The position numbers and the translations under genes are program-made. A stretch of DNA of 64,000 nucleotides, taken from Pseudomonadota bacterium. GTDB taxonomy: Bacteria; Myxococcota; JACRCW01; JAFGSX01. The first letter of the stretch is position 1. The number at the start of each line of letters is the position of its first letter. The notes under the pieces were generated by a model. The model did not search any database. It was not told the DNA's origin and worked only from the letters and a program-made list of their open reading frames with translations. The stretch covers positions 87,560 to 151,559 of the forward strand of contig JBDRCO010000046.1 of the NCBI GenBank assembly GCA_043821645.1. The letters are read 5' to 3'. Positions 45,068 to 59,527 of the stretch are shown here, one piece after another.

Positions 45068-46213
45068 TCAATCCAGGCGCTTGCGGAAGCGCAGCAGCGC
45101 GCCAGCGAACAGCAGCGAGCCGATGATGGCCAGGCCCAGGGTCTCGGGCCACAGCACGTCCATGCCCACGCCCTTGAGAAACACGCCGCGCACGATGATC
45201 AGGAAGTAGCGCAGGGGGATGACGTAGGTCAGCTTCTGGATGATCGCGGGCATGTTCTCGATGGGAAAGACGAAGCCCGACAGGAACATCATGGGCATGA
45301 GGAAGAAGAAGATCACCGTCATCATGGCCTGCTGCTGGGTGCGCGAGATGGTGCTCACGAACAGGCCGATGGCCAGGGTGTTGACGACGAAGAGCAGGAT
45401 CAGGGCGTAGAGCAGGGCCAGGGAGCCGCGCAGGGGCACCTCGAACCACAGCGTGGCCACGGCCACGACCAGGGTCGACTGCACCAGCCCGATGGCGACG
45501 AAGGGCAGCAGCTTGCCCAGCAGCAGCACCGTCGGCGACAGGGGCGCCACGATGAGCTGCTCCAGGGTGCCCACCTCCTTCTCGCGGACGATGGCCATCG
45601 AGGTCAGCACCGAGGTGAAGATGACAAGGATGAGGGCCAGCACCGCCGGCACCATGAAGTTGCGGCTGGTCAGCTGCTCGTTGTACAGCACCTTGCCCAG
45701 CACCTGGATGCCCGCCGTCGATTCCAGCCCGGCGGCGGCGGCCTGGCTGCGCAGGACCTCGAGGCCCAGCCCCTGCACCACGCTGGCGACGACCGCGGAG
45801 CCCAGACCTGCGGAGACCGCATCGCTGCCGTCGATGATGAGGTGCACGGGCACCGCCGGGCCACCGGCGAGGGCCTGACCGAGCCCCGGCGGCAGTACCA
45901 GCACCAGGTCGACCTGGGCGCGCTCGATGCGCGCCAGGGCGGCCTCCTCGCTGTCCTCGACAAAGAGGATGCTGGCGTTCTCGGCGGCCTCGAGCGTGGA
46001 GGCCAGCAGCCGGCTGCCCGGGGTGTGGTCGTGGTCGACGATGGCGATGCGCGCGTCCACCACGTCGAGGGTAGCGGCGTAGCCGAGCAGCAGCAGCTGC
46101 ACCACTGGCGCCACGAACACCATGGGCAACATGCGGCGATCGCGCCTCAGCTGCAGCAGCTCCTTGCGCATGACGTGGGGCAGGGCTGCCAGGGGTCGCT
46201 GCCGGGTCGTCAT
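45068..46213 (-). CDS. ABC-2 permease (YbhR-like)
   Basis: KELLQLRRD, REKEVGTLEQL, FLSGFVFPIENMP. Confidence 0.92.
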   Translation of the reverse strand: MTTRQRPLAALPHVMRKELLQLRRDRRMLPMVFVAPVVQLLLLGYAATLDVVDARIAIVDHDHTPGSRLLASTLEAAENASILFVEDSEEAALARIERAQVDLVLVLPPGLGQALAGGPAVPVHLIIDGSDAVSAGLGSAVVASVVQGLGLEVLRSQAAAAGLESTAGIQVLGKVLYNEQLTSRNFMVPAVLALILVIFTSVLTSMAIVREKEVGTLEQLIVAPLSPTVLLLGKLLPFVAIGLVQSTLVVAVATLWFEVPLRGSLALLYALILLFVVNTLAIGLFVSTISRTQQQAMMTVIFFFLMPMMFLSGFVFPIENMPAIIQKLTYVIPLRYFLIIVRGVFLKGVGMDVLWPETLGLAIIGSLLFAGALLRFRKRLD

Positions 46214-47319
46214 AGCCGCACCCGCTTCAGGCGCGCCCGGGCGATGCCCATGGTGACGACGGCGAACAGGGTCAGCGCCAGCAGGTCGGGCCAGAAGCGC
46301 TCGGGTCCGGTACCGCGCAGGATGATGCCGCGCAGCACGCTCAAAAAGTAGCGCGCGGGCACGGCGTAGGTTACCAGCTGGATGGCCGCGGGCATCGAGC
46401 GGATGGGAAAGGCGAAGCCCGACAGCAGAAAGGTCGGCAGCAGGGTGATGAAGGTGGCCACCATGAAGGCCAGCTGCTGGCTCTCCGTCGCCGTCGAGAT
46501 GAGCAGGCCCAGACCCTGGGCGCCCAGGATGAACAGCAGCGAGGCCAGGCCCAGCCACCACAGGCTGCCGCGGATCTCGACCCCGAACAGCAGCATGCCC
46601 GTGACCAGCACCAGCACCGTGGCCAGCACCGACACGCCCGCGTAGGGCAGCGACTTGCCGACGATGACCTGGGCCGGGGTCAGGGGCGACACCAGCAGCT
46701 GCTCCATGGTGCCGGTCTCGCGCTCGCGCACGACGCTGAGGGCGGTGGCGATGGTGCACGAGATCATCAGCACGAAGGCGATCAGGCCCGGTACCAAGAA
46801 GCGCTCGCTCTTCAGCTCGGGGTTGTACAGGACGGTCTGGCGCAGCTCGACCGGTGGGTGTGCGGACAGGCCGGAGCGAGCGAGCAGGGTCGCGCCGTGG
46901 GACCCGACAAAGGCCTGCAGGTAGGCCAGGGCGGTCTGCGCCGCGTTGGCATTGCTGCCGTCGACGACGGCCTGCACCGTGGCCAGCTCGCCCCGCGCCA
47001 GGTCGCGCCCGAGCCCCGGCGGCAGCACCAGGGCCACGGTGGCCTCGCCACGGTCCAGGCGCGCCAGGGCGGCGGCTTCCTGCTCGTCGCGGTGCACCAG
47101 GTCGAAGTACTCGCTCGAGGTGAGCGCGGCCACCAGGGCGCGGCTGTCGGCGCTGCGGTCCTGGTCGACCACGCTGAGCGAGATGTGGCGCACGTCGAAG
47201 CTCAGCACGTAGCCGAAGAGCACCAGCATCATCGACGGCACCAGCACCAGCACGGCGATGGACCGCGGATCGCGGCTGAGCTGGCGCAGCTCCTTGCGGG
47301 CCACGGCGCGCACGGTCAT
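46210..47319 (-). CDS. ABC-2 permease (YbhS-like)
   Basis: KELRQLSRD, YNPEL, RERETGTMEQL, LSGFAFPI. Confidence 0.92.
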   Translation of the reverse strand: MTVRAVARKELRQLSRDPRSIAVLVLVPSMMLVLFGYVLSFDVRHISLSVVDQDRSADSRALVAALTSSEYFDLVHRDEQEAAALARLDRGEATVALVLPPGLGRDLARGELATVQAVVDGSNANAAQTALAYLQAFVGSHGATLLARSGLSAHPPVELRQTVLYNPELKSERFLVPGLIAFVLMISCTIATALSVVRERETGTMEQLLVSPLTPAQVIVGKSLPYAGVSVLATVLVLVTGMLLFGVEIRGSLWWLGLASLLFILGAQGLGLLISTATESQQLAFMVATFITLLPTFLLSGFAFPIRSMPAAIQLVTYAVPARYFLSVLRGIILRGTGPERFWPDLLALTLFAVVTMGIARARLKRVRL

Positions 47320-48254
47320 CGCTCCACCTCCCGCGCCAGCGAGATGAACACGTCCTCGAGGCTGGGCAGGGTGGGCGTGGGCGCCTCGAACACCAGCTGC
47401 CGCTGCTGCAGCACCTGCACCAGGGCCGCCGTCAGCTCGGCCGGAGCGACCCCGGTGCGCCCGAACACGTGCAGACCTGCGCCGTGCAAGGTCGCCTCGT
47501 CGACCAGGGTCAGGGTCTGCGCCGCCTCGAGCGCTCGCGCCGGGTCGCCGCAGCGCAGATCGAGCAGGGCGCGGTCGCCGAGCAGGGCCTTGAGCTGCGA
47601 GGGGGTGCCCCGGGCGATGACCTTGCCGCGGGCGATCAGGGCCAGGGCGTGGCAGTACTCGGCCTCGTCGAGAAAGTGGGTGGTGAGCAGGATCGTGGTG
47701 CCCTGGGCTGCCAGCTCGGCGATGAGATCAAAGAAGGCCCGGCGCATGATGGGGTCCACGCCGCCGGTGGGCTCGTCGAGGAACACGATCTGCGGCTGGT
47801 GCAGCAGGGCGCACACCAGCGCCAGGCGCTGGGCGATGCCGCCAGGGAGGTCCCGGGCCAGGGACCTGGTATGGGCCTGCAGCTCACCAACCTCCACCGC
47901 CCAGTCCCGACGCAGGCGCAGGCGCTCGGCGTCCAGGCCGTAGATGCCGCCGAAGAAGCGGATGTTCTCGTCGACGCTGAGGTCGCGGTAGAGGCTGAAG
48001 CGCTGCGACATGTAGCCGATGCGCGCCTTGACCCCCTCGGGGTCGCGGGCCACGTCGAGCCCAGCCACCTGGGCGCGGCCATCGCTGGGCTGCAGCAGGC
48101 CGCACAGGATGCGGATGGTGGTGGACTTGCCAGCGCCGTTGGGGCCGAGCAGGCCGAACACTGCCCCCTCGGCCACGTCGAGGTCCACGTGGTCCACGGC
48201 CAGGAAGTCGCCGAAGCGCTTGCACAGGCCGCGCACCTCGATGGCCGGGCTCAC
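47316..48254 (-). CDS. ABC ATP-binding protein (YbhF second-half-like)
   Basis: GPNGAGKST, GYMSQRFSLY, LPGG, LDEPTGGVDP. GTG start overlaps the upstream stop. Confidence 0.92.
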   Translation of the reverse strand: MSPAIEVRGLCKRFGDFLAVDHVDLDVAEGAVFGLLGPNGAGKSTTIRILCGLLQPSDGRAQVAGLDVARDPEGVKARIGYMSQRFSLYRDLSVDENIRFFGGIYGLDAERLRLRRDWAVEVGELQAHTRSLARDLPGGIAQRLALVCALLHQPQIVFLDEPTGGVDPIMRRAFFDLIAELAAQGTTILLTTHFLDEAEYCHALALIARGKVIARGTPSQLKALLGDRALLDLRCGDPARALEAAQTLTLVDEATLHGAGLHVFGRTGVAPAELTAALVQVLQQRQLVFEAPTPTLPSLEDVFISLAREVER

Positions 48255-49207
48255 GCCGGGGCTCCCGCGGCCACCTTGGCGCGGTCGACCATGTCGATGA
48301 ACACGTCTTCCAGCGACGGCGCCACGTCGCGCTGGTGCTCGACCTGGATCTGCTGTGCGGCGAGGGCCTGCACCAGGTCCGCGAGATCGTCGTCGCGCTG
48401 CACCGGGATGGCGTGCAGCCTGTCGCCGTAGGGGTGCACGCGACGAACGCGTGGTGAGGCCTGCAACAGCAGCTGGGCGGCGCGCACCGGCTGACACACG
48501 ATCTCGATGAGGCGATCGCTGAAGCGCTGGCGCAGCTGCAGCGGATCGTCCTCGGCCAGGGCGCGGCCCGCGTGCACCAGGGCCACCCGGGTGCAGCGCT
48601 CGGCCTCGTCGAGGTAGGGCGTGGTCAGCAGCACGCTCAGGCCGTCCTGCAGCAGGCGGTGCAGCAGCGACCAGAACTCGCGCCGCGACACCGGGTCGAC
48701 GCCGGTGGTGGGCTCGTCGAGCAGCAGCAGCTGCGGCTGGTGGATCAGGGTGCAGGCCAGGGCCAGCTTCTTCTGCATGCCGCCGGACAGCTGATCGGCG
48801 CGGCGCCGGGTGTAGGGCCCGAGCAGGGTGAAGTCGAGCAGTGCCCCCAGGCGTCCCCGGATGTCGGGCACGCGGTGTATCTCGCCGAAGAACTCGATGT
48901 TCTCTTGCACCGTGAGGTCGCCGTACAGGGTGAAGCGCTGCGACAGGTAGCCGACGCTGTGCTTGACCACTTCGGGGTTTTTCTGCGGGTCCATGCCGAG
49001 CACGCGCACCGTGCCTGCACGCAGCGCGAGCAGGCCGAGCAAGGTGCGGATGGCGGTGGTCTTGCCCGCGCCGTCCGGGCCCACCAGGCCGTACATCTCG
49101 CCCCGGCGCACCTCGAAGCTCAGACCGCGCAGGGCTGCAATCTCGCCGTAGGCCAGCTCGGCATGGCGGAACTCGGCCACCAGCTCGATGTCGCGTCCGG
49201 CGCTCAC
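48251..49207 (-). CDS. ABC ATP-binding protein (YbhF first-half-like)
   Basis: GPDGAGKTT, LSGGMQKKL, LDEPTTGVDP. Confidence 0.92.
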   Translation of the reverse strand: MSAGRDIELVAEFRHAELAYGEIAALRGLSFEVRRGEMYGLVGPDGAGKTTAIRTLLGLLALRAGTVRVLGMDPQKNPEVVKHSVGYLSQRFTLYGDLTVQENIEFFGEIHRVPDIRGRLGALLDFTLLGPYTRRRADQLSGGMQKKLALACTLIHQPQLLLLDEPTTGVDPVSRREFWSLLHRLLQDGLSVLLTTPYLDEAERCTRVALVHAGRALAEDDPLQLRQRFSDRLIEIVCQPVRAAQLLLQASPRVRRVHPYGDRLHAIPVQRDDDLADLVQALAAQQIQVEHQRDVAPSLEDVFIDMVDRAKVAAGAPA

Positions 49208-50202
49208 GGCGTCGCCGCCGGCCGCGGCCCGAACACCACCCGCGCGGGCATGCCGGGCTTGAGCTTCTCGTCGTCGTTGGCGAGCTGGATGCGGATCTTG
49301 AAGACGAGGCGCGCCCGCTGCTCGGCGGTCTGCACGTTCTTGGGGGTGAACTCGGCGCGGTCGCTGATCGACGCCACGTGCCCGGGTCTGGGTGCACCGG
49401 GAAGGGCATCGACGTGCACCTGCACGGCCTGGCTGAGCTGCACCAGGCCCAGGTCCTGCTCGGCCAGGTAGACGTCGACGTGCACCTGGCGCAGGTCTGC
49501 CAGCACCAGCAGCGGGCCCCCCGGGCGCGCCACCTCGCCCGGCTCGACCAGGCGCGACAGCACGCGGCCGGCGAGAGGGGACGTCACCACGGCATCGGTG
49601 ATCTTCTTGTCCAGCATGGCCAGCGCGGCTTCGGCCTGCTCGCGCATGGCGGTGGCGGCCTCGATCTCCTCGGCGCGGGCGCCCCGCCTCAGCTTCTCGA
49701 CCACGCTCTGCGCCTGGGCCTCGCGGGCCAGCGCCAGGTCGCGCATCGAGGCCGCGTCGTCGAGCTGCTTGGGGGTGACCGCCCCCTTGGCGAGCAGAGC
49801 CTGGGTTCGTGCCAGGTCCCGCTCCCCGGCCTGCACCTGCAGGTGGGCCTGGGCCAGGGCCTGCTCGGCGCCCTGCACGTCCTCGCGCCGGGCCCCGCGC
49901 CGCGCCATCCTCTCCTGGGCCTGGGCCGCCTTGAGCTGGGCCTCGATCTGGGCGCGCTGCAGCTCCAGGTCGCGCACGTCCGTGCGCACCAGCACCTGCC
50001 CGGCCTGCACGGCATCGCCCTCGGCCGCGCCCACCTCGAGCACGGCCCCACCCAGCAGCGAGGCCACCCGCACCTCGGTGGCTTCGACGGCTCCGTAGGC
50101 CACGATCTCCCCGGCGTCCGGGTCCTCGCAGCCTGGCAGGTCCAGACCCGCCGTGGCCAGGAACAGCCCTGCGGCTGCGGCTAGCGTGGTGGCGCGTCGC
50201 AT
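49204..50202 (-). CDS. HlyD-family membrane fusion protein (YbhG-like)
   Basis: GAVEATEV, coiled-coil hairpin, AEFTPKNVQT, LKPGMP. RBS GGAGG. Confidence 0.92.
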   Translation of the reverse strand: MRRATTLAAAAGLFLATAGLDLPGCEDPDAGEIVAYGAVEATEVRVASLLGGAVLEVGAAEGDAVQAGQVLVRTDVRDLELQRAQIEAQLKAAQAQERMARRGARREDVQGAEQALAQAHLQVQAGERDLARTQALLAKGAVTPKQLDDAASMRDLALAREAQAQSVVEKLRRGARAEEIEAATAMREQAEAALAMLDKKITDAVVTSPLAGRVLSRLVEPGEVARPGGPLLVLADLRQVHVDVYLAEQDLGLVQLSQAVQVHVDALPGAPRPGHVASISDRAEFTPKNVQTAEQRARLVFKIRIQLANDDEKLKPGMPARVVFGPRPAATP

Positions 50203-50792
50203 GAAGACACCTCCTGTGCGCGGGCGCTGAGCCCGCCAAGAAAGATCGCGCGCAGCATCTGGATCACGTCGCCCAGCTCGAGGCCGGAGCGCTCGACGAA
50301 GGCCGGCGTGCCCACGGTCTCGACGATGGCCAGCACCGCCTGGGTCAGCATCGACGGAGGGAAATCGTCCCGGATCTCCCCCGCCTGCTGGCCCTGTTCG
50401 ATGAGCGTCAGGTAGCGGGTCAAGAAGTGGTGCCGGCGCTGCATCACCTCGGCCAGCACCTCGGGGTACAGCCGGGCCAGGTCCAGGGGGGCGCCCGGCG
50501 GCAGCGAGCGCACGAAGCTCTGGACCTGGCTGAACAGGGCCTCGAGCTTGTGCAGGGCCGAGCCCTTCTGCTGCAGGTTCAGCTCGACCTGGGCGAACAT
50601 CGCCTCGGCCGTGTTCACCACCACCTCGCGAACGAGGGCTTCCTTGCTCTCGAAGTGCAGGTACAGGGTCTTCTTGCTGATTCCCAGGTCTCGGGCCAGG
50701 TCGTCGATGCGCACCGCGCGCAGGCCGTGGCGCTGGAAGGCCAGGCGCGCAGCCTCGAGGATATCTTGTTTGGAAACTTTGGAAACCCTCAT
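50181..50792 (-). CDS. TetR/AcrR family transcriptional regulator
   Basis: HTH IDDLARDLGISKKTLYLHFESKEAL. First gene of the ABC operon. Confidence 0.93.
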   Translation of the reverse strand: MRVSKVSKQDILEAARLAFQRHGLRAVRIDDLARDLGISKKTLYLHFESKEALVREVVVNTAEAMFAQVELNLQQKGSALHKLEALFSQVQSFVRSLPPGAPLDLARLYPEVLAEVMQRRHHFLTRYLTLIEQGQQAGEIRDDFPPSMLTQAVLAIVETVGTPAFVERSGLELGDVIQMLRAIFLGGLSARAQEVSSCDAPPR

Positions 50793-50846: not shown

Positions 50847-51032
50847 TCAGATCTCTTCATCTTCGAGAGGGGTGAGACCGGGGCCCGAGTCCTCCTCGCT
50901 GTCCGGGTGGCCCGGCACACGGTAGCCCTCTCCCAGCCAGCGGCCCAGATCGATGAGCTTGCAGCGCTCACTGCAGAAGGGCCTGTGCATCGTTTCCGGG
51001 CCTAGGTCCTTGTGACAGACAGGGCAGGTCAT
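50847..51032 (-). CDS. yacG: DNA gyrase inhibitor YacG
   Basis: CPVC...[24 protein letters not shown], acidic tail. Confidence 0.93.
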
Positions 51033-51108
51033 CGCGCACACCCGCTGCACCCGGAGACAGGAACCCGCACGGGATCGCGATCGGGCCTGCGTCGGGAACG
51101 ACCCATGG

Positions 51109-52332
51109 TCAGCTCTCGAGGGCGCGTTCGGGCACGGTGTCGAAGAAGTGATCGTCGTCGAGGTAGAGGCTGCGCACCAGCTGCTCGACGGTGTCGGGCA
51201 TGTACTTGACCCACAGCTTGATCGGGACGTCATGCACGTCGTTCAGACCCGGGGCGCGGCACAGGCTCAGGATGAACTCCATGAGGAAGCGGATATTCAT
51301 GCCCAGGTTGCCGTTGTAGTCAGGGTGTCGGCGCTGGCTGAGCACCCGCTCCTCGTGCATGGCGCGGCCGATCTCGCTTTCGAGGTATTCCTGAAAGCTG
51401 GACACGATGATCTCGACGCTGACCTCATCGTCGGCCTGGGTCAGGAAGGTCAGATAGTCGTCGAGCACGCGCTCCGGCTCGAAGCCTCGCAGGTGCAGCA
51501 AGGTGAGGAAACGGCCCGACGGTGGACGCGCAGCCAGCATGGCCTTCGGGAACGGCAAGGCCACGTGCATGTTGGTCGCGTTGTAGACGCCCCGGTGCTC
51601 CTCGACCTCATCGACGCGACAGCCGAACTGCTCGAGCAGGGGCAGCAGGCGCGATCGTTCGTGGTCCTCGAGGATCAGCTTGACGCCCACCACGTCGGGG
51701 ATGGACTGCACACCCAGGTCGCGGGCGATGGTGCCCTGCTTGATGCGCTTGATCACGCGCCGCTCGGCGTGGGCGAACTCCTCGGCCATCTTCTCCGGCG
51801 GCGTGACCAGGGTGCGACGGTCGACGCCGAGGGAGCGGGCGCGCTCCTCGGCGAGCTGGTCCGCGCTCTCGCGGATCCGGCGCAACATGTCGTCGACGAT
51901 GCGGCGCCCTCCCTTCTCGGCAATACGCCGGAAGCGCTTGATGCGCGTGCACGCCACCAGCGACGGCTGGCCACTGGCCTCGACCGTGTAGTAGCCGCCA
52001 TCCACGGGGGTCTCCCGGTAGAAGTCCTCGGGAAAGCGCAGGTAGCGATCGCACATCTGCTCGATGCGGGGTGAGGTGTAGCGCAGGTTGCGGACCGCGA
52101 AGTCCTTGTAGGCGCCCTTGACCTGCGTCGGGTGCCAGGTGGGCTCGGCGCTGTGCAGCTCCCGGAGCAGGCGGGTGGTCAGGTCATCGAGCCAGATGCG
52201 AGCGCAGTACAGGTTGAAGTTGACGATGGTCTTGAGCTGCCGGACGTCACCGGAGCGCGGACGGTTGAGCATCCAGCGCGTGATCAGCTCGGCCAGCTGC
52301 TGTCGGTGTACGAAGCTATCGATGCGCAGCAT
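51109..52332 (-). CDS. Divergent RelA/SpoT-synthetase-like nucleotidyltransferase (407 aa)
   Basis: Ordered motifs [58 protein letters not shown]. Confidence 0.6.
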
Positions 52333-52546
52333 GGCGTCCTCGCGAGGGGCGGCCCCAAGGTATAGCGCGCTGGCGATGACGGGTCGAGGTGGGAGATCGG
52401 ATGCCGGGGCCGGCCCACAAGACAGCTCAGGAGGAGCCGTGGCATAATCCTGCGCGATAGCGCCACGCCGCTGTGCAGGAGGGCGCGTCGCGTCGTGACT
52501 GGAGCGAGTGCAGGTCCCATCCTGCCGAGGGGAAGAGAGGTTGAGC

Positions 52547-53254
52547 ATGCGACACCTGTCCATCGCTGCCGGGCTCGGGTTGTGGATCCTGACGGGGTGC
52601 GTGACCTACTTCGGTGTGGACGCGGCGGAACCCGGAGACACGGGCCCGGATGGCAGCACGGTGCAGGACGCCAGCACGGCGTCGGATCTGGCGGGTGGTC
52701 AGGACAGGTTCACAGGCCTCGATCGCGCGACCGGCGTCGATCACACCACAGGTTTCGACGCAGGCGCACCCCGGGACGCCGCAGCGGGAGTCGACCTGGC
52801 GGTGCCGCACGACGCAGCTTCGGGCGGCGACCTCGGCGCGCCCCGCGACGCCAACGTGGTGGTGCCCGATGGTGGCATGCCGGTGGGGAGTCACTGCGAG
52901 AGCGCGCCCTGTACCCAGGAGGCCATGTGCATCGGCACGGCGACCAACGCCGTGTGCCGGCTCAAGTGCATCCGGGGCGACGGCACGTGCCAGGCGCAGA
53001 CCGAGTTCTGTCAGAACATCCTGCTCCCTGACGGCGGTCCCTCGCCCACGGGAGCCTGTGTACCCGCGCAGGGTGAAGGCCAGACGTGCGTCGACGAGCC
53101 CTGCGCCGAGATCTACACCTGCGCCTACTCGGGCGCGGATGCCGCATCCGTGACCTGCCACGTGTCGTGCTGGCCTCAGTCCACCGACGCCGGCTGTCCC
53201 TCCGGTCAAGCCTGCATGGGCTTCACCGGGCAGGATTCGGGGGCGTGCTTCTGA
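52547..53254 (+). CDS. Cys-rich lipoprotein with Asp/Ala/Gly linker
   Basis: Lipobox LTGC, DAG-rich linker, duplicated G-x-x-C...C Cys modules. Confidence 0.8.
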   Translation: MRHLSIAAGLGLWILTGCVTYFGVDAAEPGDTGPDGSTVQDASTASDLAGGQDRFTGLDRATGVDHTTGFDAGAPRDAAAGVDLAVPHDAASGGDLGAPRDANVVVPDGGMPVGSHCESAPCTQEAMCIGTATNAVCRLKCIRGDGTCQAQTEFCQNILLPDGGPSPTGACVPAQGEGQTCVDEPCAEIYTCAYSGADAASVTCHVSCWPQSTDAGCPSGQACMGFTGQDSGACF

Positions 53255-53329: not shown

Positions 53330-54862
53330 TCAGTTGCCCGGCGTCTCGTCGTCGGGCACGACGTCTTCGGCCTGGGCGAGGTCGGGCGGTGGCGTGGTGT
53401 CTGGCGGCGGTTCCAGGCCCAGTTCCCGGGCCATGGGGTGCAGCGGAGGTGGGTGCGGGTTGTATCCGCGCGGTGCGGCAGCGGCACCCTGCTTGGCGCG
53501 AAGGATGGCCTCGAACGAGGTCTGCACAGGCGCGCCGACCAGGCACGCCGGCGGCGTGGCAGGTCCCTCGGTCGACAGGTCCTGCGCGCTTCGCCCGTGA
53601 TTGCTGCGATCCATGACCTCGACTTCCCAGCCAGGATCGTCGTTGTCGGAGCCCGGGTCAGGGGTGACATCGCGCGCCAGCACTTCGGCCGCCCCGACGC
53701 TGGCGTCGACCAGACCGCGGCGAAGCATGGGTGACGGCAGGGGAGGGATCACCGGCGGCGCGAGGTTCGGAGCCGCGGTGGGCGCGGCGGGTGGGGTCGG
53801 TTCTGCGGCCGCAGGGAGTCCGTGGCGCGAAGGATCGAACAGCGCGGGATCGAGCCGGGCGCCCAGGGGCACCAGCGACGGCAAAAAGCTCGGGATCCGG
53901 CCGGTGGGTACCAGCACGGGCACGGCCGCGTCGTCGTCGTCCGATGCGACGCAGTGAAACAGCGTGCTCAGCGCAGAGCCCTCGACACTGGGCACCAGCT
54001 CGTCGATCTCGACCACTGCAAGGCGCTTGTCGGGTAGGCGTCCCACGACCACCACCAGGGACAGCGCCGCGTCGCACAAGGTGCGCGCCACGACCGCATC
54101 CATGCCGCCGGCGCAGGCCAGCGCGACCAGCTGGGCGAGCCCACTGCGCGCATCGACGGCCGTTCCCCGGGCCATGGACCCCGCCAGACCCGTGGCGGCC
54201 TGCAGGAACCAGGGCGCGGTGGTGGCGTCGAGCCAGGGCGCCACGGCGCGATCCGGGCGCAGGGCAAGGACGCCCGGCAGCAGCTCTGCCGCATTCGAGG
54301 CATCGATGTGGAGTGGAATGCAGCCCGGGACCAGCGGGGCCATGCCAGGGTGCGCGATCAGCACGACGACGCGTTCCTGCGGGGTCAGGGCTTGCACCAG
54401 GGCAGCCAGCAGACCGCCATCCACCGCCGGTGGCGGCGTCAGCAGCAGGATGCCTCGGCGTCCCGCAACCGCGGCACGCAACAGGGGCAAGGCCAGGGCT
54501 GGCACCACGTCCGCATCGACCAGCATGTCCAGGTCCGGACCCTGCCTGGGTGGCAGGCTGAGGGCCAGATGTGGAACCTCGCCAGCTTCCATCCGCAACA
54601 CGGTCAGTTCCTGTCCGTGCTGGCCCTGCCCCCGTAGCAGGCGGCTGTCCACGCTCAGGCCCGCGTCGGCCGCGACAGCGCGGGCGATGCTCTCCAGGGC
54701 ACCTGCAGGCAAGGCGCCCTCGATGGTCTGCAGCTGACCGCGGCGCTCGACCAGCAGGCTGGTTTCACCGTCCGCGAGCAAATGGCTGACCTCCGGATCG
54801 CTCGCGTGATCTGCCAGGGGACCGAGCCAGCCGCGAAAGGGATCTGAAAAAAAGTCGAGCAT
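53330..54862 (-). CDS. CpaF/TadA/VirB11-like protein, degenerate ATPase, Pro-rich C-terminus
   Basis: DPEVSHLLADG..VERRG, ERVVVL, LALRPDR, VVVGRLPDKRLAVVEIDE. Walker A replaced by LTPPPAVDGG. Confidence 0.7.
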   Translation of the reverse strand: MLDFFSDPFRGWLGPLADHASDPEVSHLLADGETSLLVERRGQLQTIEGALPAGALESIARAVAADAGLSVDSRLLRGQGQHGQELTVLRMEAGEVPHLALSLPPRQGPDLDMLVDADVVPALALPLLRAAVAGRRGILLLTPPPAVDGGLLAALVQALTPQERVVVLIAHPGMAPLVPGCIPLHIDASNAAELLPGVLALRPDRAVAPWLDATTAPWFLQAATGLAGSMARGTAVDARSGLAQLVALACAGGMDAVVARTLCDAALSLVVVVGRLPDKRLAVVEIDELVPSVEGSALSTLFHCVASDDDDAAVPVLVPTGRIPSFLPSLVPLGARLDPALFDPSRHGLPAAAEPTPPAAPTAAPNLAPPVIPPLPSPMLRRGLVDASVGAAEVLARDVTPDPGSDNDDPGWEVEVMDRSNHGRSAQDLSTEGPATPPACLVGAPVQTSFEAILRAKQGAAAAPRGYNPHPPPLHPMARELGLEPPPDTTPPPDLAQAEDVVPDDETPGN

Positions 54863-55580: not shown

Positions 55581-57740
55581 CTACTCGCTGCCCAGTGGTC
55601 CTGCCCGCGCTGGAACCGCTTCCACATCCACGCCGGTGATGGCATCGCCCTCGAGCAGGGTGTCCACCACCTCCATGCCCGAGGTCACCCGCCCAAAGGC
55701 GGTGTAGCGGCCGTCCAAATGCGGCTGGCGCGACTGCGTGAAGAAGAACTGGCTCCCGCCGGTGTCGCGGCCCGCCAGGGCCATGCCCAGGGTCCCCCGT
55801 TCGTAGGCCCGGGGCGTGATCTCGTCGGGAATGGCATAGCCAGGCCCGCCGAAGCCATCGCCGCGCGGGTCGCCGCCCTGCACCACGAAGCCCGCGACCA
55901 CGCGATGAAAGCTCAGGCCATTGAAGAAGCCCGTGCGGGCAAGCTGCACGAAGTGGGCAGCAGTCTCCGGCGTTTCGTCGGCAAACAGCTCGATCTCGAT
56001 GCTGCCGCGAACCGTGTGCATGCGGGCGCGGAGCCCCCGCGGGTCGACCGCGGGTGGTGTGCCGAAGCGGGGCGCCATGCCAAACACCGGGGCCCGGCCC
56101 GTGGCGCGGCGCACGGCATTGCGCACCTCGACCGGCCCGGTATCCGCGAGCAGGGCGATGGCCTGGGCTGCGGTGCTCTTGCCGTGGGTGACCAGGGCTC
56201 GCGCCAGGGTTGCCCGGGCTGACAGCACCGCGGCATCACTGGCGCTCTGTGTTCGTTCGAGGGCGCGCTGGATGTCGTCAACCAGCGAGGGGTCCTCGGG
56301 CCAGGCCGTCAGGGCATCCGCCACAGCCTCGATCACTGCCGCGTCGTCGTCGGCAGCGAGCCGTGTTCGCAACAGGGTGCGGGTCGCGGCGTCGTCGGCC
56401 TCGCCCAGCGCCAGCACGGCCTGGATGCGCACGCGAGGATCGGCGTCACTCAGGTAAGGATGAAGCCTGGTGCGCAGGGGAGCGGAGCGCTGGGCAGCCA
56501 GGGCCAGGGCCTTGACCTCGCGGATGCGGGTCGTGACCTCGGGCTCGGTCTGACCGCTGCAACGGGCCAGGGGCTTGAGATCGAGGCTACGCGACGCCAG
56601 GGCAATGGCCACCTGGCAGCGCACGGGCCCCAGCGCCACACTGCTGGACGTGACCACGCGGCCGCTCGCCGGCGTCAGTACTCGCTCCACCCGGCGCAGG
56701 CCGTCGTCGTCAAGCAGGGACAGCGTCGTCCCCAGCACGTGGGCTGCCGGCGTATTACTGTCCGGCGCTGCCAGGATGGCCGCCACCGCCCGGTCTGCAG
56801 CCAGCTGCAGCGGCGCCTTGTTCATCTTCGGATCGCGGGAGGCGCGTCGTCCCAGGGCGCGCAAGGCCTCGACCTGTACCCGCCAGTCCTCGTCGTCGAG
56901 GGCCCGGACCAGTGCGTCCGCGCCTTCATCGCAGGCGCCCAGACCGCGCGCGGCCCAGGTCCTGACCCGCGCGTCGGCGTCCGCGCGCAGCAGCGTCGGG
57001 AACAGTTCCTGGGCCTGGCAGGTCTCGTGGCGTGCCAGGGCATAGACGGCTGCGAAACGCACCTCGGCCAGGGGACTGTGACCCAGGGCGATGAGCTTGC
57101 CGAACAGGTCGACGTTCTTGTGTGCGTCCTTGCCTCGTCGCACCGCGTGTACACCGTAGGCGAGGGCGGCATAGGCAGCGTTGAGGCCCTCCTCGTCGAG
57201 GCCGGCATAGATGTGGTGCAGACCCGGGCCGATCACGACCTGGCCCAGCGCCGCATACACCTGCTCGCGCACGCGCGGATTCTGCTCGACGTGCAGCCTG
57301 GCGTCGAGGGCGCGCTCGGCCTGGGCCCGGGTCTGCGCGGCCTGGCGCACCCAGGCGTCGGAGCCCTTGTGGCCGGCGTGGATCTGGTCGAGCAGCAGGG
57401 GCAGCTCCTGATCGAGGGCACCCAGGGCAAAGGCCGCATGACCGCGAACCGCCGCATCCTTGTCGCCCAGGGCGGTGATGAGGCTGGGCGCACCCTCGGG
57501 GTCCGCCAGGCGCGCCAGGGCCAGAGCCGTGCGAGCCCGCACCGACGCGTCCTCGTGCGCCAGGTAGGGCACCAGCGCCGTGGCCCGGACCCGTGCGCGC
57601 TCGAGCTTGGCCACGGTCGCCGTGGCCTGAACCGGGTCGCGTTCGACAGCAGAGGCCGCGGCTGCGGGCGCGCGCTGGGGCCCCGGTGACGAGGTGGTGC
57701 AGGACAGTGCAAGCAACGCGACGAGGGACAGGCGACGCAT
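55581..57740 (-). CDS. HEAT-repeat lipoprotein with C-terminal cyclophilin-type PPIase
   Basis: Lipobox ALSC, multiple L.D.D..VR..AA.ALG repeats, FHRVVAGFVVQGGDP, GSQFF, HLDGRYTAFG. Confidence 0.92.
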   Translation of the reverse strand: MRRLSLVALLALSCTTSSPGPQRAPAAAASAVERDPVQATATVAKLERARVRATALVPYLAHEDASVRARTALALARLADPEGAPSLITALGDKDAAVRGHAAFALGALDQELPLLLDQIHAGHKGSDAWVRQAAQTRAQAERALDARLHVEQNPRVREQVYAALGQVVIGPGLHHIYAGLDEEGLNAAYAALAYGVHAVRRGKDAHKNVDLFGKLIALGHSPLAEVRFAAVYALARHETCQAQELFPTLLRADADARVRTWAARGLGACDEGADALVRALDDEDWRVQVEALRALGRRASRDPKMNKAPLQLAADRAVAAILAAPDSNTPAAHVLGTTLSLLDDDGLRRVERVLTPASGRVVTSSSVALGPVRCQVAIALASRSLDLKPLARCSGQTEPEVTTRIREVKALALAAQRSAPLRTRLHPYLSDADPRVRIQAVLALGEADDAATRTLLRTRLAADDDAAVIEAVADALTAWPEDPSLVDDIQRALERTQSASDAAVLSARATLARALVTHGKSTAAQAIALLADTGPVEVRNAVRRATGRAPVFGMAPRFGTPPAVDPRGLRARMHTVRGSIEIELFADETPETAAHFVQLARTGFFNGLSFHRVVAGFVVQGGDPRGDGFGGPGYAIPDEITPRAYERGTLGMALAGRDTGGSQFFFTQSRQPHLDGRYTAFGRVTSGMEVVDTLLEGDAITGVDVEAVPARAGPLGSE

Positions 57741-58915: not shown

Positions 58916-59034
58916 CGGGGCCACGCTCGCCGGCCGCCGTCTCACCTGTCGTGGATGGACCGTGCCGCGCTGCCGGGCTGAAGCCGGCAAGACTCTCGTC
59001 GCCGAGGACGGGCCTGCCGCGCACAGCACAAAAG

Positions 59035-59123
59035 AAGACCGCCGTACACACGACCGGGAGTCCGCACCGTTGCTCCCTTCCGGGCCTGGCGGGGTTAGGA
59101 CGCGGCCGTTGCACGGCGGTCAC
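59035..59123 (-). ncRNA. ffs: Signal recognition particle 4.5S RNA
   Basis: Minus strand contains AACCCCGCCAGGCCCGGAAGGGAGCAACGG (domain IV, GGAA loop). Ends pair (GACCGCCGTGCA / TGTACGGCGGTC), followed by a T-tract. Lies downstream of tRNA-Ser. Confidence 0.88.
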
Positions 59124-59189
59124 AGGCGCCCACGTGGGGCGAGAACCTATCCTACCTCGATCCGTCGCGCGCGGGGCGCGGGTTTTTCA

Positions 59190-59280
59190 TGGCGGAGAGG
59201 GCGGGATTCGAACCCGCGGCACCCTTTTGAGGTGCACACGATTTCCAGTCGTGCACCTTCGGCCTCTCGGTCACCTCTCC
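59190..59280 (-). tRNA. tRNA-Ser(GGA)
   Basis: GGAGAGG...CACGA-CT-GGA-AA-TCGTG, long variable arm, GTTCGAATC, CCA end. Confidence 0.97.
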
Positions 59281-59284
59281 ATGG

Positions 59285-59402
59285 CCCTGGCAGCACCGTT
59301 TTTCCAGGGGCGTTCGGCACGCCCCTCCCCCGTCGAAGTGAATTCGACGGGGCCCCCACCCTGGCAGCACACCACGTTTCTCGAGGGGCGTTCGGCACGC
59401 CC
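59285..59402. repeat. Two-copy imperfect direct repeat with hairpins in the tRNA spacer
   Basis: CCCTGGCAGCAC at 59285 and 59359. AGGGGCGTTCGGCACGCCC at 59306 and 59384. A 10-bp hairpin lies between them at 59328-59352. Confidence 0.8.
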
Positions 59403-59435
59403 ACCAATCATCGCTCCGGGGTGCGGCGCCGGATC

Positions 59436-59527
59436 TGGCGGAGAGCGAGGGATTCGAACCCCCGGTACCGTTACCAGTACACCTGATTTCGAGTCAGGCG
59501 CCTTCGACCAGGCTCGGCCAGCTCTCC
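59436..59527 (-). tRNA. tRNA-Ser(CGA)
   Basis: GGAGAGC...CCTGA-CT-CGA-AA-TCAGG, long variable arm, GTTCGAATC, CCA end. Confidence 0.97.

Follow-up and report, generated by a model that had tools for sequence, protein, structure and literature searches.

RelA/SpoT homologue (RSH) enzymes control the stringent response. We analyzed a 64,000-nucleotide stretch of DNA (the window; positions 87,560 to 151,559 of contig JBDRCO010000046.1, assembly GCA_043821645.1) from a bacterium that GTDB places in the Myxococcota. A gene on its reverse strand, at 51109..52332, encodes a member of a well-conserved protein family that has an RSH synthetase-type fold and is missed by domain libraries. We think that this protein is probably (roughly 0.6) a stand-alone, chromosomal, deeply divergent RSH-type pyrophosphokinase with an altered acceptor. 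It would not be a toxin and would have a regulatory or housekeeping role, with the activity itself being a prediction.

The original prediction, made from the window sequence alone, proposed a highly divergent RSH synthetase-like protein. The open reading frame (ORF) and coordinates that it gave are correct.

51109..52332, reverse strand: coding sequence of the RSH synthetase-like protein (P0001); its translation is 407 amino acids plus a stop codon, and it has 368 homologues at E ≤ 1e-3
52337..52341, reverse strand: GAGGA, a ribosome-binding-site-like sequence 5 to 9 nucleotides 5' of the ATG, read from the sequence

A longer ATG frame on the gene strand extends to 52563. The start of the 407-amino-acid frame is fixed by a 36-sequence alignment, in which all 35 aligned homologues begin at its Met, as ML.(L/I)(D/E)SF. 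GC content is about 64 to 69% at the gene, versus about 70% in its surroundings. The host assembly is 7.07 Mb in 140 contigs and is estimated to be 94.7% complete.

We searched for relatives in several ways. A word-indexed search with the window protein returned 368 clusters at E ≤ 1e-3. Among the matches listed (119 besides the query), lengths were 376 to 488 amino acids and identities to the window protein were 51 to 82%. Those with a name are called "hypothetical protein," except for one labeled "malate synthase." An exhaustive phmmer search found 162 representatives at E ≤ 1e-3, 57 of them at E ≤ 1e-30, and a search from a Holophagaceae member added another 491 clusters at E ≤ 1e-10. When species-representative genomes were scanned, 58 related loci were obtained, all in metagenome-assembled genomes (MAGs). 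Their submitters labeled them Myxococcota or "Deltaproteobacteria," Acidobacteriota (among them Holophagaceae, at 28 to 30% identity), and Desulfobacterales. Cultured members also exist, in Mesoterricola silvestris (WP_316414524.1) and M. sediminis (WP_243329244.1). The M. silvestris protein is 30% identical to the window protein and has the same conserved motif residues. We found no description of such a family in the literature. Three member accessions had no matches in the part that was searched of the supplements to a sequence-based hidden Markov model (HMM) survey, which described 30 small alarmone synthetase (SAS) subfamilies from 24,072 genomes (PMC7229694); those MAGs are perhaps outside that data set.

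Scans of the window protein with Pfam, NCBIfam, and PADLOC gave no family call, and PF04607 (RelA_SpoT) did not match it at E ≤ 1. The Pfam family DUF7893 had weak matches in 20 of 60 family members (best E, 9.7e-4), which were all under the 27-bit cutoff and uninformative. Both searches covered 12 genomes, and in these the PF04607 matches lay on other contigs, never at the family locus. The family HMM had no significant link to eight weak or short PF04607-type Myxococcota frames (best E, 0.01 in 22 frames). A phmmer search of the PDB with the single window protein returned nothing meaningful. When we used a profile of 60 family sequences, Bacillus subtilis RelP/YwaC (6fgk_A) was matched at E 8.8e-4, and this was the only significant match. 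The alignment paired InDvaGiKvi with IHDIAGVRII at motif 2 and GeYnatnl with GYRSLHL at motif 3 (the motifs are listed below). In the ESM Atlas, the four structural rows outside the family itself (rows 4 to 7 of 7) were all PF04607 clusters, and 15% of the members of the nearest named feature clusters carry PF04607.

An RSH synthetase fold with insertions

We made two independent AlphaFold2 models, one of the window protein (predicted local distance difference test score, 87.1; predicted template modeling [TM] score, 0.85) and one of M. silvestris WP_316414524.1 from its own 38-sequence alignment (local score, 82.8). Both were compared by VIA-align with PDB representative chains. For the window model, ranks 1 to 11 of 48,161 were all RSH synthetase domains: RelP (6ewz_A; Z 9.2 over 149 amino acids at 3.2 Å), RelQ (5dec_A; 9.1), BsRelP (6fgk_A; 9.0), Rel (8acu_B; 8.3), an exported SAS (8vx3; 7.4), CapRel (6.9), Rel (6.7), SpoT (6.5), RelA (6.5), Tas1 (5.6), and SpoT (5.2). 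Rank 12 was an unrelated helical protein (Z 4.9). For the Mesoterricola model, ranks 1 to 6 were RSH synthetases (RelP, 8.6; RelQ, 8.3; Rel, 8.0; RelP, 8.0; exported alarmone synthetase [EAS], 7.8; Rel, 7.6), with general nucleotidyltransferase-fold proteins such as iojap/RsfS close behind at Z 6.8. A Foldseek search of the PDB with the window model also had an RSH enzyme in every listed row among the top 28 ranks (best, 2be3_A at E 6e-3). The original prediction had named, as an outcome that would refute it, a predicted structure without the Pol-beta/RSH nucleotidyltransferase core. This outcome did not occur, as RSH chains ranked first for both models. The models place the window protein in the RSH synthetase fold.

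About 149 residues align to RelP and RelQ, inside model residues 27 to 337, and RSH matches overall cover residues 17 to 337. The protein divides as follows.

52153..52332, reverse strand: residues 1 to 60; short strand, helix 10 to 21, and long helix 29 to 60 with invariant D29 (model secondary structure), the helices lying in the RSH core
51970..52152, reverse strand: insertion 1, residues ~61 to 121; strand, two helices, and strand, with invariant K72 and P109 and a conserved PEDFY (model and alignment)
51718..51891, reverse strand: insertion 2, residues ~148 to 205; long antiparallel helical hairpin (helices 134 to 168 and 179 to 199 in the model) with conserved A189-E190-R-R
51433..51549, reverse strand: insertion 3, residues ~262 to 300; three helices with near-invariant R282-G283 (model and conservation)
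51112..51321, reverse strand: C-terminal extension, residues 338 to 407; helix 342 to 359, conserved P370-I-K-L-W-x-x-Y377-M-P379, helix 379 to 390, and a variable tail, beyond the RSH-matched range

Judging from the aligned lengths, insertion 1 would have no counterpart in the 149-amino-acid core aligned to RelP and RelQ. The hairpin of insertion 2 recurs in the Mesoterricola model, and its structural matches are generic helical hairpins only. In conservation, the insertions are roughly level with the core (mean column identity, 0.38 to 0.46 versus 0.45 to 0.63). An N-terminal region of unknown fold had been proposed. However, RSH structural alignments begin at model residues 8 to 35, and the long helix 29 to 60 therefore belongs to the core. 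Only part of the proposed region is extra, the true insertion being at residues ~61 to 121.

Motifs and substrate-contacting residues

Conservation was measured in a 60-sequence alignment of homologues down to 21% identity. The four motifs of the original prediction are where it placed them, at residues 130 to 140, 213 to 221 (DVVGVKLIL), 248 to 257, and 307 to 326 (EIIVSS...MH), and are defined here as follows.

51904..51945, reverse strand: motif 1, R130-x-K132-x3-R136-x3-K140-x2-R143; end of strand 122 to 131 and start of helix 134 to 168, 95 to 100% conserved (R130, 98%; K132, 100%; K140, 98%; R143, 95%)
51679..51696, reverse strand: motif 2, D213-V-V-G216-V-K218; on strand 215 to 220, with D213 and G216 in 60/60 and K218 in 97%
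51571..51597, reverse strand: motif 3, H246-x-G248-x-Y250-x3-N254; loop between strands 239 to 246 and 252 to 260 (the G-loop position), with Y250 in 95%
51352..51414, reverse strand: motif 4, E307-I-I309-V-S-S...E318-S-E320-x-G322-x3-H326-E327; strand 303 to 311 and two helices (E307, 97%; I309, 92%; G322 and E327, 100%; H326, 98%)

Invariant residues are D29, K72, P109, K132, R136, D213, G216, G322, and E327. R130, K140, R143, K218, Y250, E307, and H326 are retained in 95 to 98% of the homologues, and H246, G248, I309, E318-S-E320, and R334 in at least 90%. A lack of motif conservation among homologues, which had been named as the other refuting outcome, was thus not seen. The spacing is as wide as had been claimed, with 72 amino acids between motifs 1 and 2, 49 between motifs 3 and 4, and 129 before motif 1. 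The claim that the Mg-binding Asp and Glu are kept is also borne out (D213 in 60/60 and E307 in 97%).

In classical Pol-beta-type nucleotidyltransferases, the strand that follows a Gly-rich turn bears a pair of carboxylates, D-x-D/E. The Asp strand of this family reads I-P-D213-V/A-V/A-G in 36 sequences. It has no D-x-D or D-x-E pair, and position 215 is V or A.

The gap-free RelA-type register proposed for motif 4 holds when E307..H326 is set against a Geothrix Rel sequence, FEVQIRTEEMHLHAEAGIASH, from the part of the PMC7229694 supplement that was used. Positions E0, E13, G15, and H19 match.

We mapped the remaining residues onto Staphylococcus aureus RelP (SaRelP). In the part of the SaRelP study used here (PMC5794853), adenine is stacked between R78 and R112. 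K80, K88, and R91 bind the phosphates, and S84 is placed on the alpha-phosphate. D107 and E174 are the Mg ligands, H190 contacts the ribose, and Y151, in the beta3-beta4 loop (G-loop), binds the acceptor. R130, K132, R136, K140, and R143 of motif 1 have the same spacing and the same strand and helix placement as SaRelP R78, K80, S84, K88, and R91. D213 is five residues before K218 on strand 215 to 220, as D107 is before R112, and HMMER aligned D213 to the YwaC Asp. Y250, in the loop between strands 239 to 246 and 252 to 260, is paired by HMMER with the Tyr of GYRSLH. E307 is on strand 303 to 311 of the model, and we infer that H326 is the counterpart of RelP H190. In the models, the donor site and the metal site look intact. 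In the part of the FaRel2 preprint available here, the Asp and the G-loop Tyr (the latter from a Y128A result) are essential (bioRxiv 2021.04.30.441581).

The original prediction also said that several substrate-contact positions (S, R, H, and Q-x-R-T) differ, and this applies across the family. S84 is replaced by the invariant R136, R112 by K218, and the His of GYxSxH by N254. The Q-x-R-T after the catalytic Glu is absent; the sequence is E307-I-I309-V-S-S, or E-V-I-L-T-T in Holophagaceae members. The second adenine-stacking Arg is missing, with K218 in 97% of members at the position that HMMER pairs with the Arg of IHDIAGVRII. These replacements, together with acidic E242 and E244 beside the G-loop, suggest that the acceptor, or the way of holding it, probably differs from the one in RelP, RelQ, or Rel.

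The Lys variant of the D-x-x-G-x-R strand is not unique to this family, because it also occurs in another Myxococcota frame of about 420 amino acids (L097, at G021:C65:17500-19700). That frame barely reaches PF04607 (26.1 bits), and its strand, VKDVFGVKIVV, has Lys for Arg.

From the residues conserved at matching structural positions, we infer that the protein binds ATP-Mg in the RelP manner and transfers pyrophosphate to an acceptor that differs, or is bound differently, from that of canonical (p)ppGpp synthetases. The adenine would be stacked on R130, the ATP phosphates would be bound by K132, K140, and R143, D213 and E307 would hold Mg, and H326 would contact the ribose. The beta,gamma-pyrophosphate would then be moved to the 3'-OH of a nucleotide, or of a nucleotide 3' end, stacked on Y250. 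The distribution described below suggests that this would be a lineage-core regulatory or housekeeping enzyme working alongside two ordinary long RSHs.

Several results weigh against an RSH-type pyrophosphokinase. None of the 60 family members reached the PF04607 gathering score (27 bits), and the best E was 0.17, for one member. An hhalign comparison of the family profile with 21 Myxococcota long-RSH synthetase domains aligned 16 columns around motif 2 with a probability of 0.55% (10 of 31 long-RSH loci had been dropped, the R.K...S motif pattern being unmatched in the longest frame). When the PDB was searched with profiles of motif 1 alone (34 sequences) and motif 4 alone (39 sequences), no RSH chain was retrieved at E ≤ 10; these two motifs are assigned from fold, strand order, and spacing. 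Foldseek gave no PDB match at E ≤ 0.001, and its TM scores by query were 0.16 to 0.19, which are low because of the insertions. The VIA-align Z scores of 8 to 9 are only moderately above that program's stated common background of 7 to 8. The structural scores are therefore moderate, and the weight lies in the consistent ranking and in the YwaC profile match. The residue mapping uses strand order, secondary structure, and spacing, rather than residue-level superposition. Finally, three canonical substrate-contacting positions differ in this family, one of them being the Gln of E-x-Q, where I309 stands in 92% of members. The part of the FaRel2 preprint used here names a "catalytic glutamine" (bioRxiv 2021.04.30.441581). 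This may be the E-x-Q Gln and, if so, catalysis might be impaired or different.

Distribution and genomic context

The family is single copy in the host genome, which has two long RSHs elsewhere (frames of 730 and 746 amino acids). In our Myxococcota sample, the gene was in 26 of 301 genomes, with a sharp split between families (17/17, 4/4, and 1/1 versus 0/123, 0/19, and 0/18). It was in 8 of 201 genomes of the Acidobacteriota sample. A single copy and presence in every sampled genome of whole families fit a core gene and not a mobile defense gene. In a quick maximum-likelihood tree of 58 sequences, the phylum labels need 8 changes, versus a mean of 18.7 when shuffled. An Acidobacteriota clade (L008, L012 to L015, and L025) and a Desulfobacterales clade (L038 and L040 to L042) fall inside the Myxococcota with SH-like approximate likelihood ratio test (SH-aLRT) values of 98 to 100, and Holophagaceae form a long separate branch. 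This suggests a few interphylum transfers, unless bins are mislabeled. Judged from these sequences, the distribution fits a core gene inherited mostly vertically, with a few transfers, and does not fit a mobile toxin.

We also compared gene neighborhoods. As the original prediction said, the next gene downstream is yacG.

50847..51035, reverse strand: yacG, encoding a DNA gyrase inhibitor (Pfam YacG, E 1.2e-18), 73 nucleotides downstream; a neighbor only

There is no terminator-like site between the two genes. In the 58 related loci, tblastn found no matches to the window yacG, the TetR gene described below, or two upstream ORFs. When all ORFs of 59 loci were clustered, no neighbor was conserved. 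The most widespread neighbor cluster was in 10 loci, and the other large clusters were overlapping frames of the target gene itself. This analysis used a crude gene caller, and 8 of the 58 loci, with the target ORF uncalled, were left out.

We scanned 72 of the 90 immediate neighbor ORFs, having dropped the 18 shortest. They are heterogeneous: 21 have no Pfam family, and the others belong to a range of ordinary families. Peptidase_S49 (four) and alanine dehydrogenase (three) recur most often, both sets coming from closely related loci. Seven of the 72 are translation related: two ABC-F-type ATPases, two EF-G, EF-P, RtcB, and an RsmD-like methyltransferase (L001:7301-9286, L007:5871-7796, L048:4857-6938, L049:1395-3509, L032:5100-5663, L002:3135-4580, and L006:7301-7897). 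So small and scattered a set does not amount to a link.

Two more statements of the original prediction concerned context and architecture. It had found no obvious antitoxin, and we saw neither a conserved adjacent gene in the 59 loci nor a PADLOC match. It had called the protein stand-alone, without a hydrolase, TGS, or ACT domain. No such Pfam domain was matched in the window protein or in any of the 60 members. No conserved neighbor was found, as noted, and there was no fused relative among 7,999 scored proteins of 714 to 2,035 amino acids, which is weak evidence. We scanned five longer-than-usual members. Those of 467, 488, and 524 amino acids had no Pfam family at E ≤ 0.1, and a 457-amino-acid member (P0013) had only weak, subthreshold DUF7893 and cwf21 matches. 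The fifth (P0251; 439 amino acids) has enolase-type domains, with the family match confined to residues 304 to 388, and is probably a gene-call or assembly chimera.

Other features of the window are listed here.

46210-50792, reverse strand: downstream of yacG, a TetR-family regulator (Pfam) and then long frames, a probable efflux operon; the frames are HlyD-type adaptor-like, ABC ATPase-like (two), and ABC-2 permease-like, named by eye from their translations
52508-53254, forward strand: divergent 248-amino-acid ORF with no Pfam family, sharing about 215 nucleotides of intergenic DNA with the RSH-like gene; it has many Cys, its lipobox-like LTGC follows an internal Met, and it may encode a secreted lipoprotein
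53330-54862, reverse strand: 510-amino-acid ORF with no Pfam family and a Pro-rich C terminus
55581-57740, reverse strand: 719-amino-acid ORF with a cyclophilin-type peptidyl-prolyl isomerase-like C terminus and a long helical-repeat region, by eye from its translation
59031-59527, reverse strand: small signal recognition particle (SRP) RNA (Rfam RF00169, 69.8 bits), adjoining two tRNA-Ser genes (anticodons, GGA and CGA)

Alternatives and relationship to known RSH enzymes

The same data could be read more boldly. The family might be a second branch of alarmone-type signaling that belongs to the core of Holophagaceae and of several uncultured Myxococcota families, in which an RSH-derived pyrophosphokinase would form a product other than (p)ppGpp. 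Its acceptor site would be rebuilt from K218, N254, I309, E242/E244, and the invariant D29 and K72. The product might be either a 3'-pyrophosphorylated nucleotide of a new kind or a nontoxic, regulatory change to the 3' end of an RNA. Regulatory input would come from the helical hairpin and from the PIKLW..YMPD element near the C terminus. We consider this fairly unlikely in its full form.

It is unlikely that the protein is a pseudoenzyme, which would use the RSH fold to bind ATP, or the alarmone of the long RSHs, as a sensor or scaffold that does not transfer pyrophosphate. The loss of the Q-x-R-T residues, the Ser, and one stacking Arg is consistent with this idea, the large conserved insertions and the C-terminal extension could be interaction surfaces, and the genome already has two long RSHs. 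However, both Mg carboxylates and four phosphate-binding basic residues are kept in 95 to 100% of the 60 members, and such retention down to 21% identity is hard to explain without catalysis.

We think it rather improbable that the protein is an effector like the toxic SAS enzymes (toxSAS), modifying tRNA and restrained by its own C-terminal extension instead of by a separate antitoxin. CapRel gave the longest structural alignment in both searches (172 amino acids at Z 6.9 and 175 at Z 6.7), and the C-terminal extension is present and conserved. Two residues required by FaRel2, the G-loop Tyr and the Mg Asp, are retained (bioRxiv 2021.04.30.441581, in the part available here), and there are the seven translation-related ORFs among the 72 neighbors. 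Those ORFs are few and scattered, however, the 59 loci have no conserved adjacent gene, and PADLOC gave no match for the window protein. In addition, the gene is single copy, whole families have it in every sampled genome, its phylogeny is largely congruent with taxonomy, and the charge of the protein is near neutral (isoelectric point, 6.66).

Very improbable is a different chemistry on the same fold, in which the protein would either act as a Pol-beta-type nucleotidyltransferase, by AMPylation or by adding nucleotides to RNA or protein, or transfer pyrophosphate to a nonnucleotide acceptor. The wider nucleotidyltransferase fold does include the RSH synthetases, chains of Iojap/RsfS, Pol X, terminal uridylyltransferase (TUTase), and MenT were matched at Z 4 to 6.8, and the changed residues are the acceptor-side ones, but RSH chains were above all other nucleotidyltransferases in both searches, the Asp strand is D213-V-V with no D-x-D or D-x-E pair, and the RSH-specific R-x-K...K..R set is retained.

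A divergent RSH-type pyrophosphokinase can also be set beside the known systems. RelP/SAS2 and RelQ/SAS1 (6EWZ, 6FGK, and 5DEC) were the best matches, over about 149 aligned residues (Z 9.2, 9.1, and 9.0 for the window model and 8.6, 8.3, and 8.0 for the homologue). Like the window protein, they have a single domain and no hydrolase domain, and the counterparts of SaRelP R78, K80, K88, R91, D107, Y151, and E174 are conserved in the window family. However, the window protein has 407 amino acids instead of about 200, with three insertions and a 70-amino-acid C-terminal extension. Its family has Arg for S84, Lys for R112, Asn for the GYxSxH His, and I-V-S-S for Q-x-R-T, and it is not detected by PF04607. 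The RelP/RelQ pair is typical of Firmicutes, according to the part of the SaRelP study used here (PMC5794853), whereas the window family is in Myxococcota, Acidobacteriota, and Desulfobacterota.

The long RSH enzymes (Rel, RelA, and SpoT) share the fold (8acu_B at Z 8.3; Rel, SpoT, and RelA at 6.5 to 6.7) and the register of E307..H326. In contrast, the window protein has no HD, TGS, or ACT domain, and its host genome encodes two separate long RSHs. The toxSAS and secreted RSH toxins have the same fold as well (CapRel 7ZTB, Z 6.9; FaRel2/FaRel 8PU1, 4.3; Tas1 6OX6, 5.6; exported EAS 8VX3, 7.4). Unlike them, the window gene has no adjacent antitoxin or immunity gene and no PADLOC match, and the protein has no delivery domain (a signal peptide was not searched for). 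Its family is vertically inherited and core within lineages. Because the protein falls short of the PF04607 threshold and lacks two canonical motif positions, we did not file the family in PF04607 or in any named SAS subfamily. On the basis of the models, we regard it as a variant of the RSH synthetase fold that is new and deeply divergent.

The sources consulted in part here describe RSH-fold enzymes with acceptors beyond GDP and GTP, namely ATP, ADP, or AMP or the tRNA 3' end (PMC7229694, bioRxiv 2021.04.30.441581, PMC12691689). With its donor-site residues kept and its acceptor-side residues replaced, the window family is a natural candidate for a new product or a new target of pyrophosphoryl transfer. 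Its members in the cultured M. silvestris and M. sediminis make this a question that can be tested at the bench. Surveys of the RSH superfamily depend on sequence HMMs, and the window family is large, strongly conserved, fixed in whole lineages, and invisible to PF04607. The alarmone synthetases of Myxococcota, Acidobacteriota, and Desulfobacterota may therefore be undercounted.

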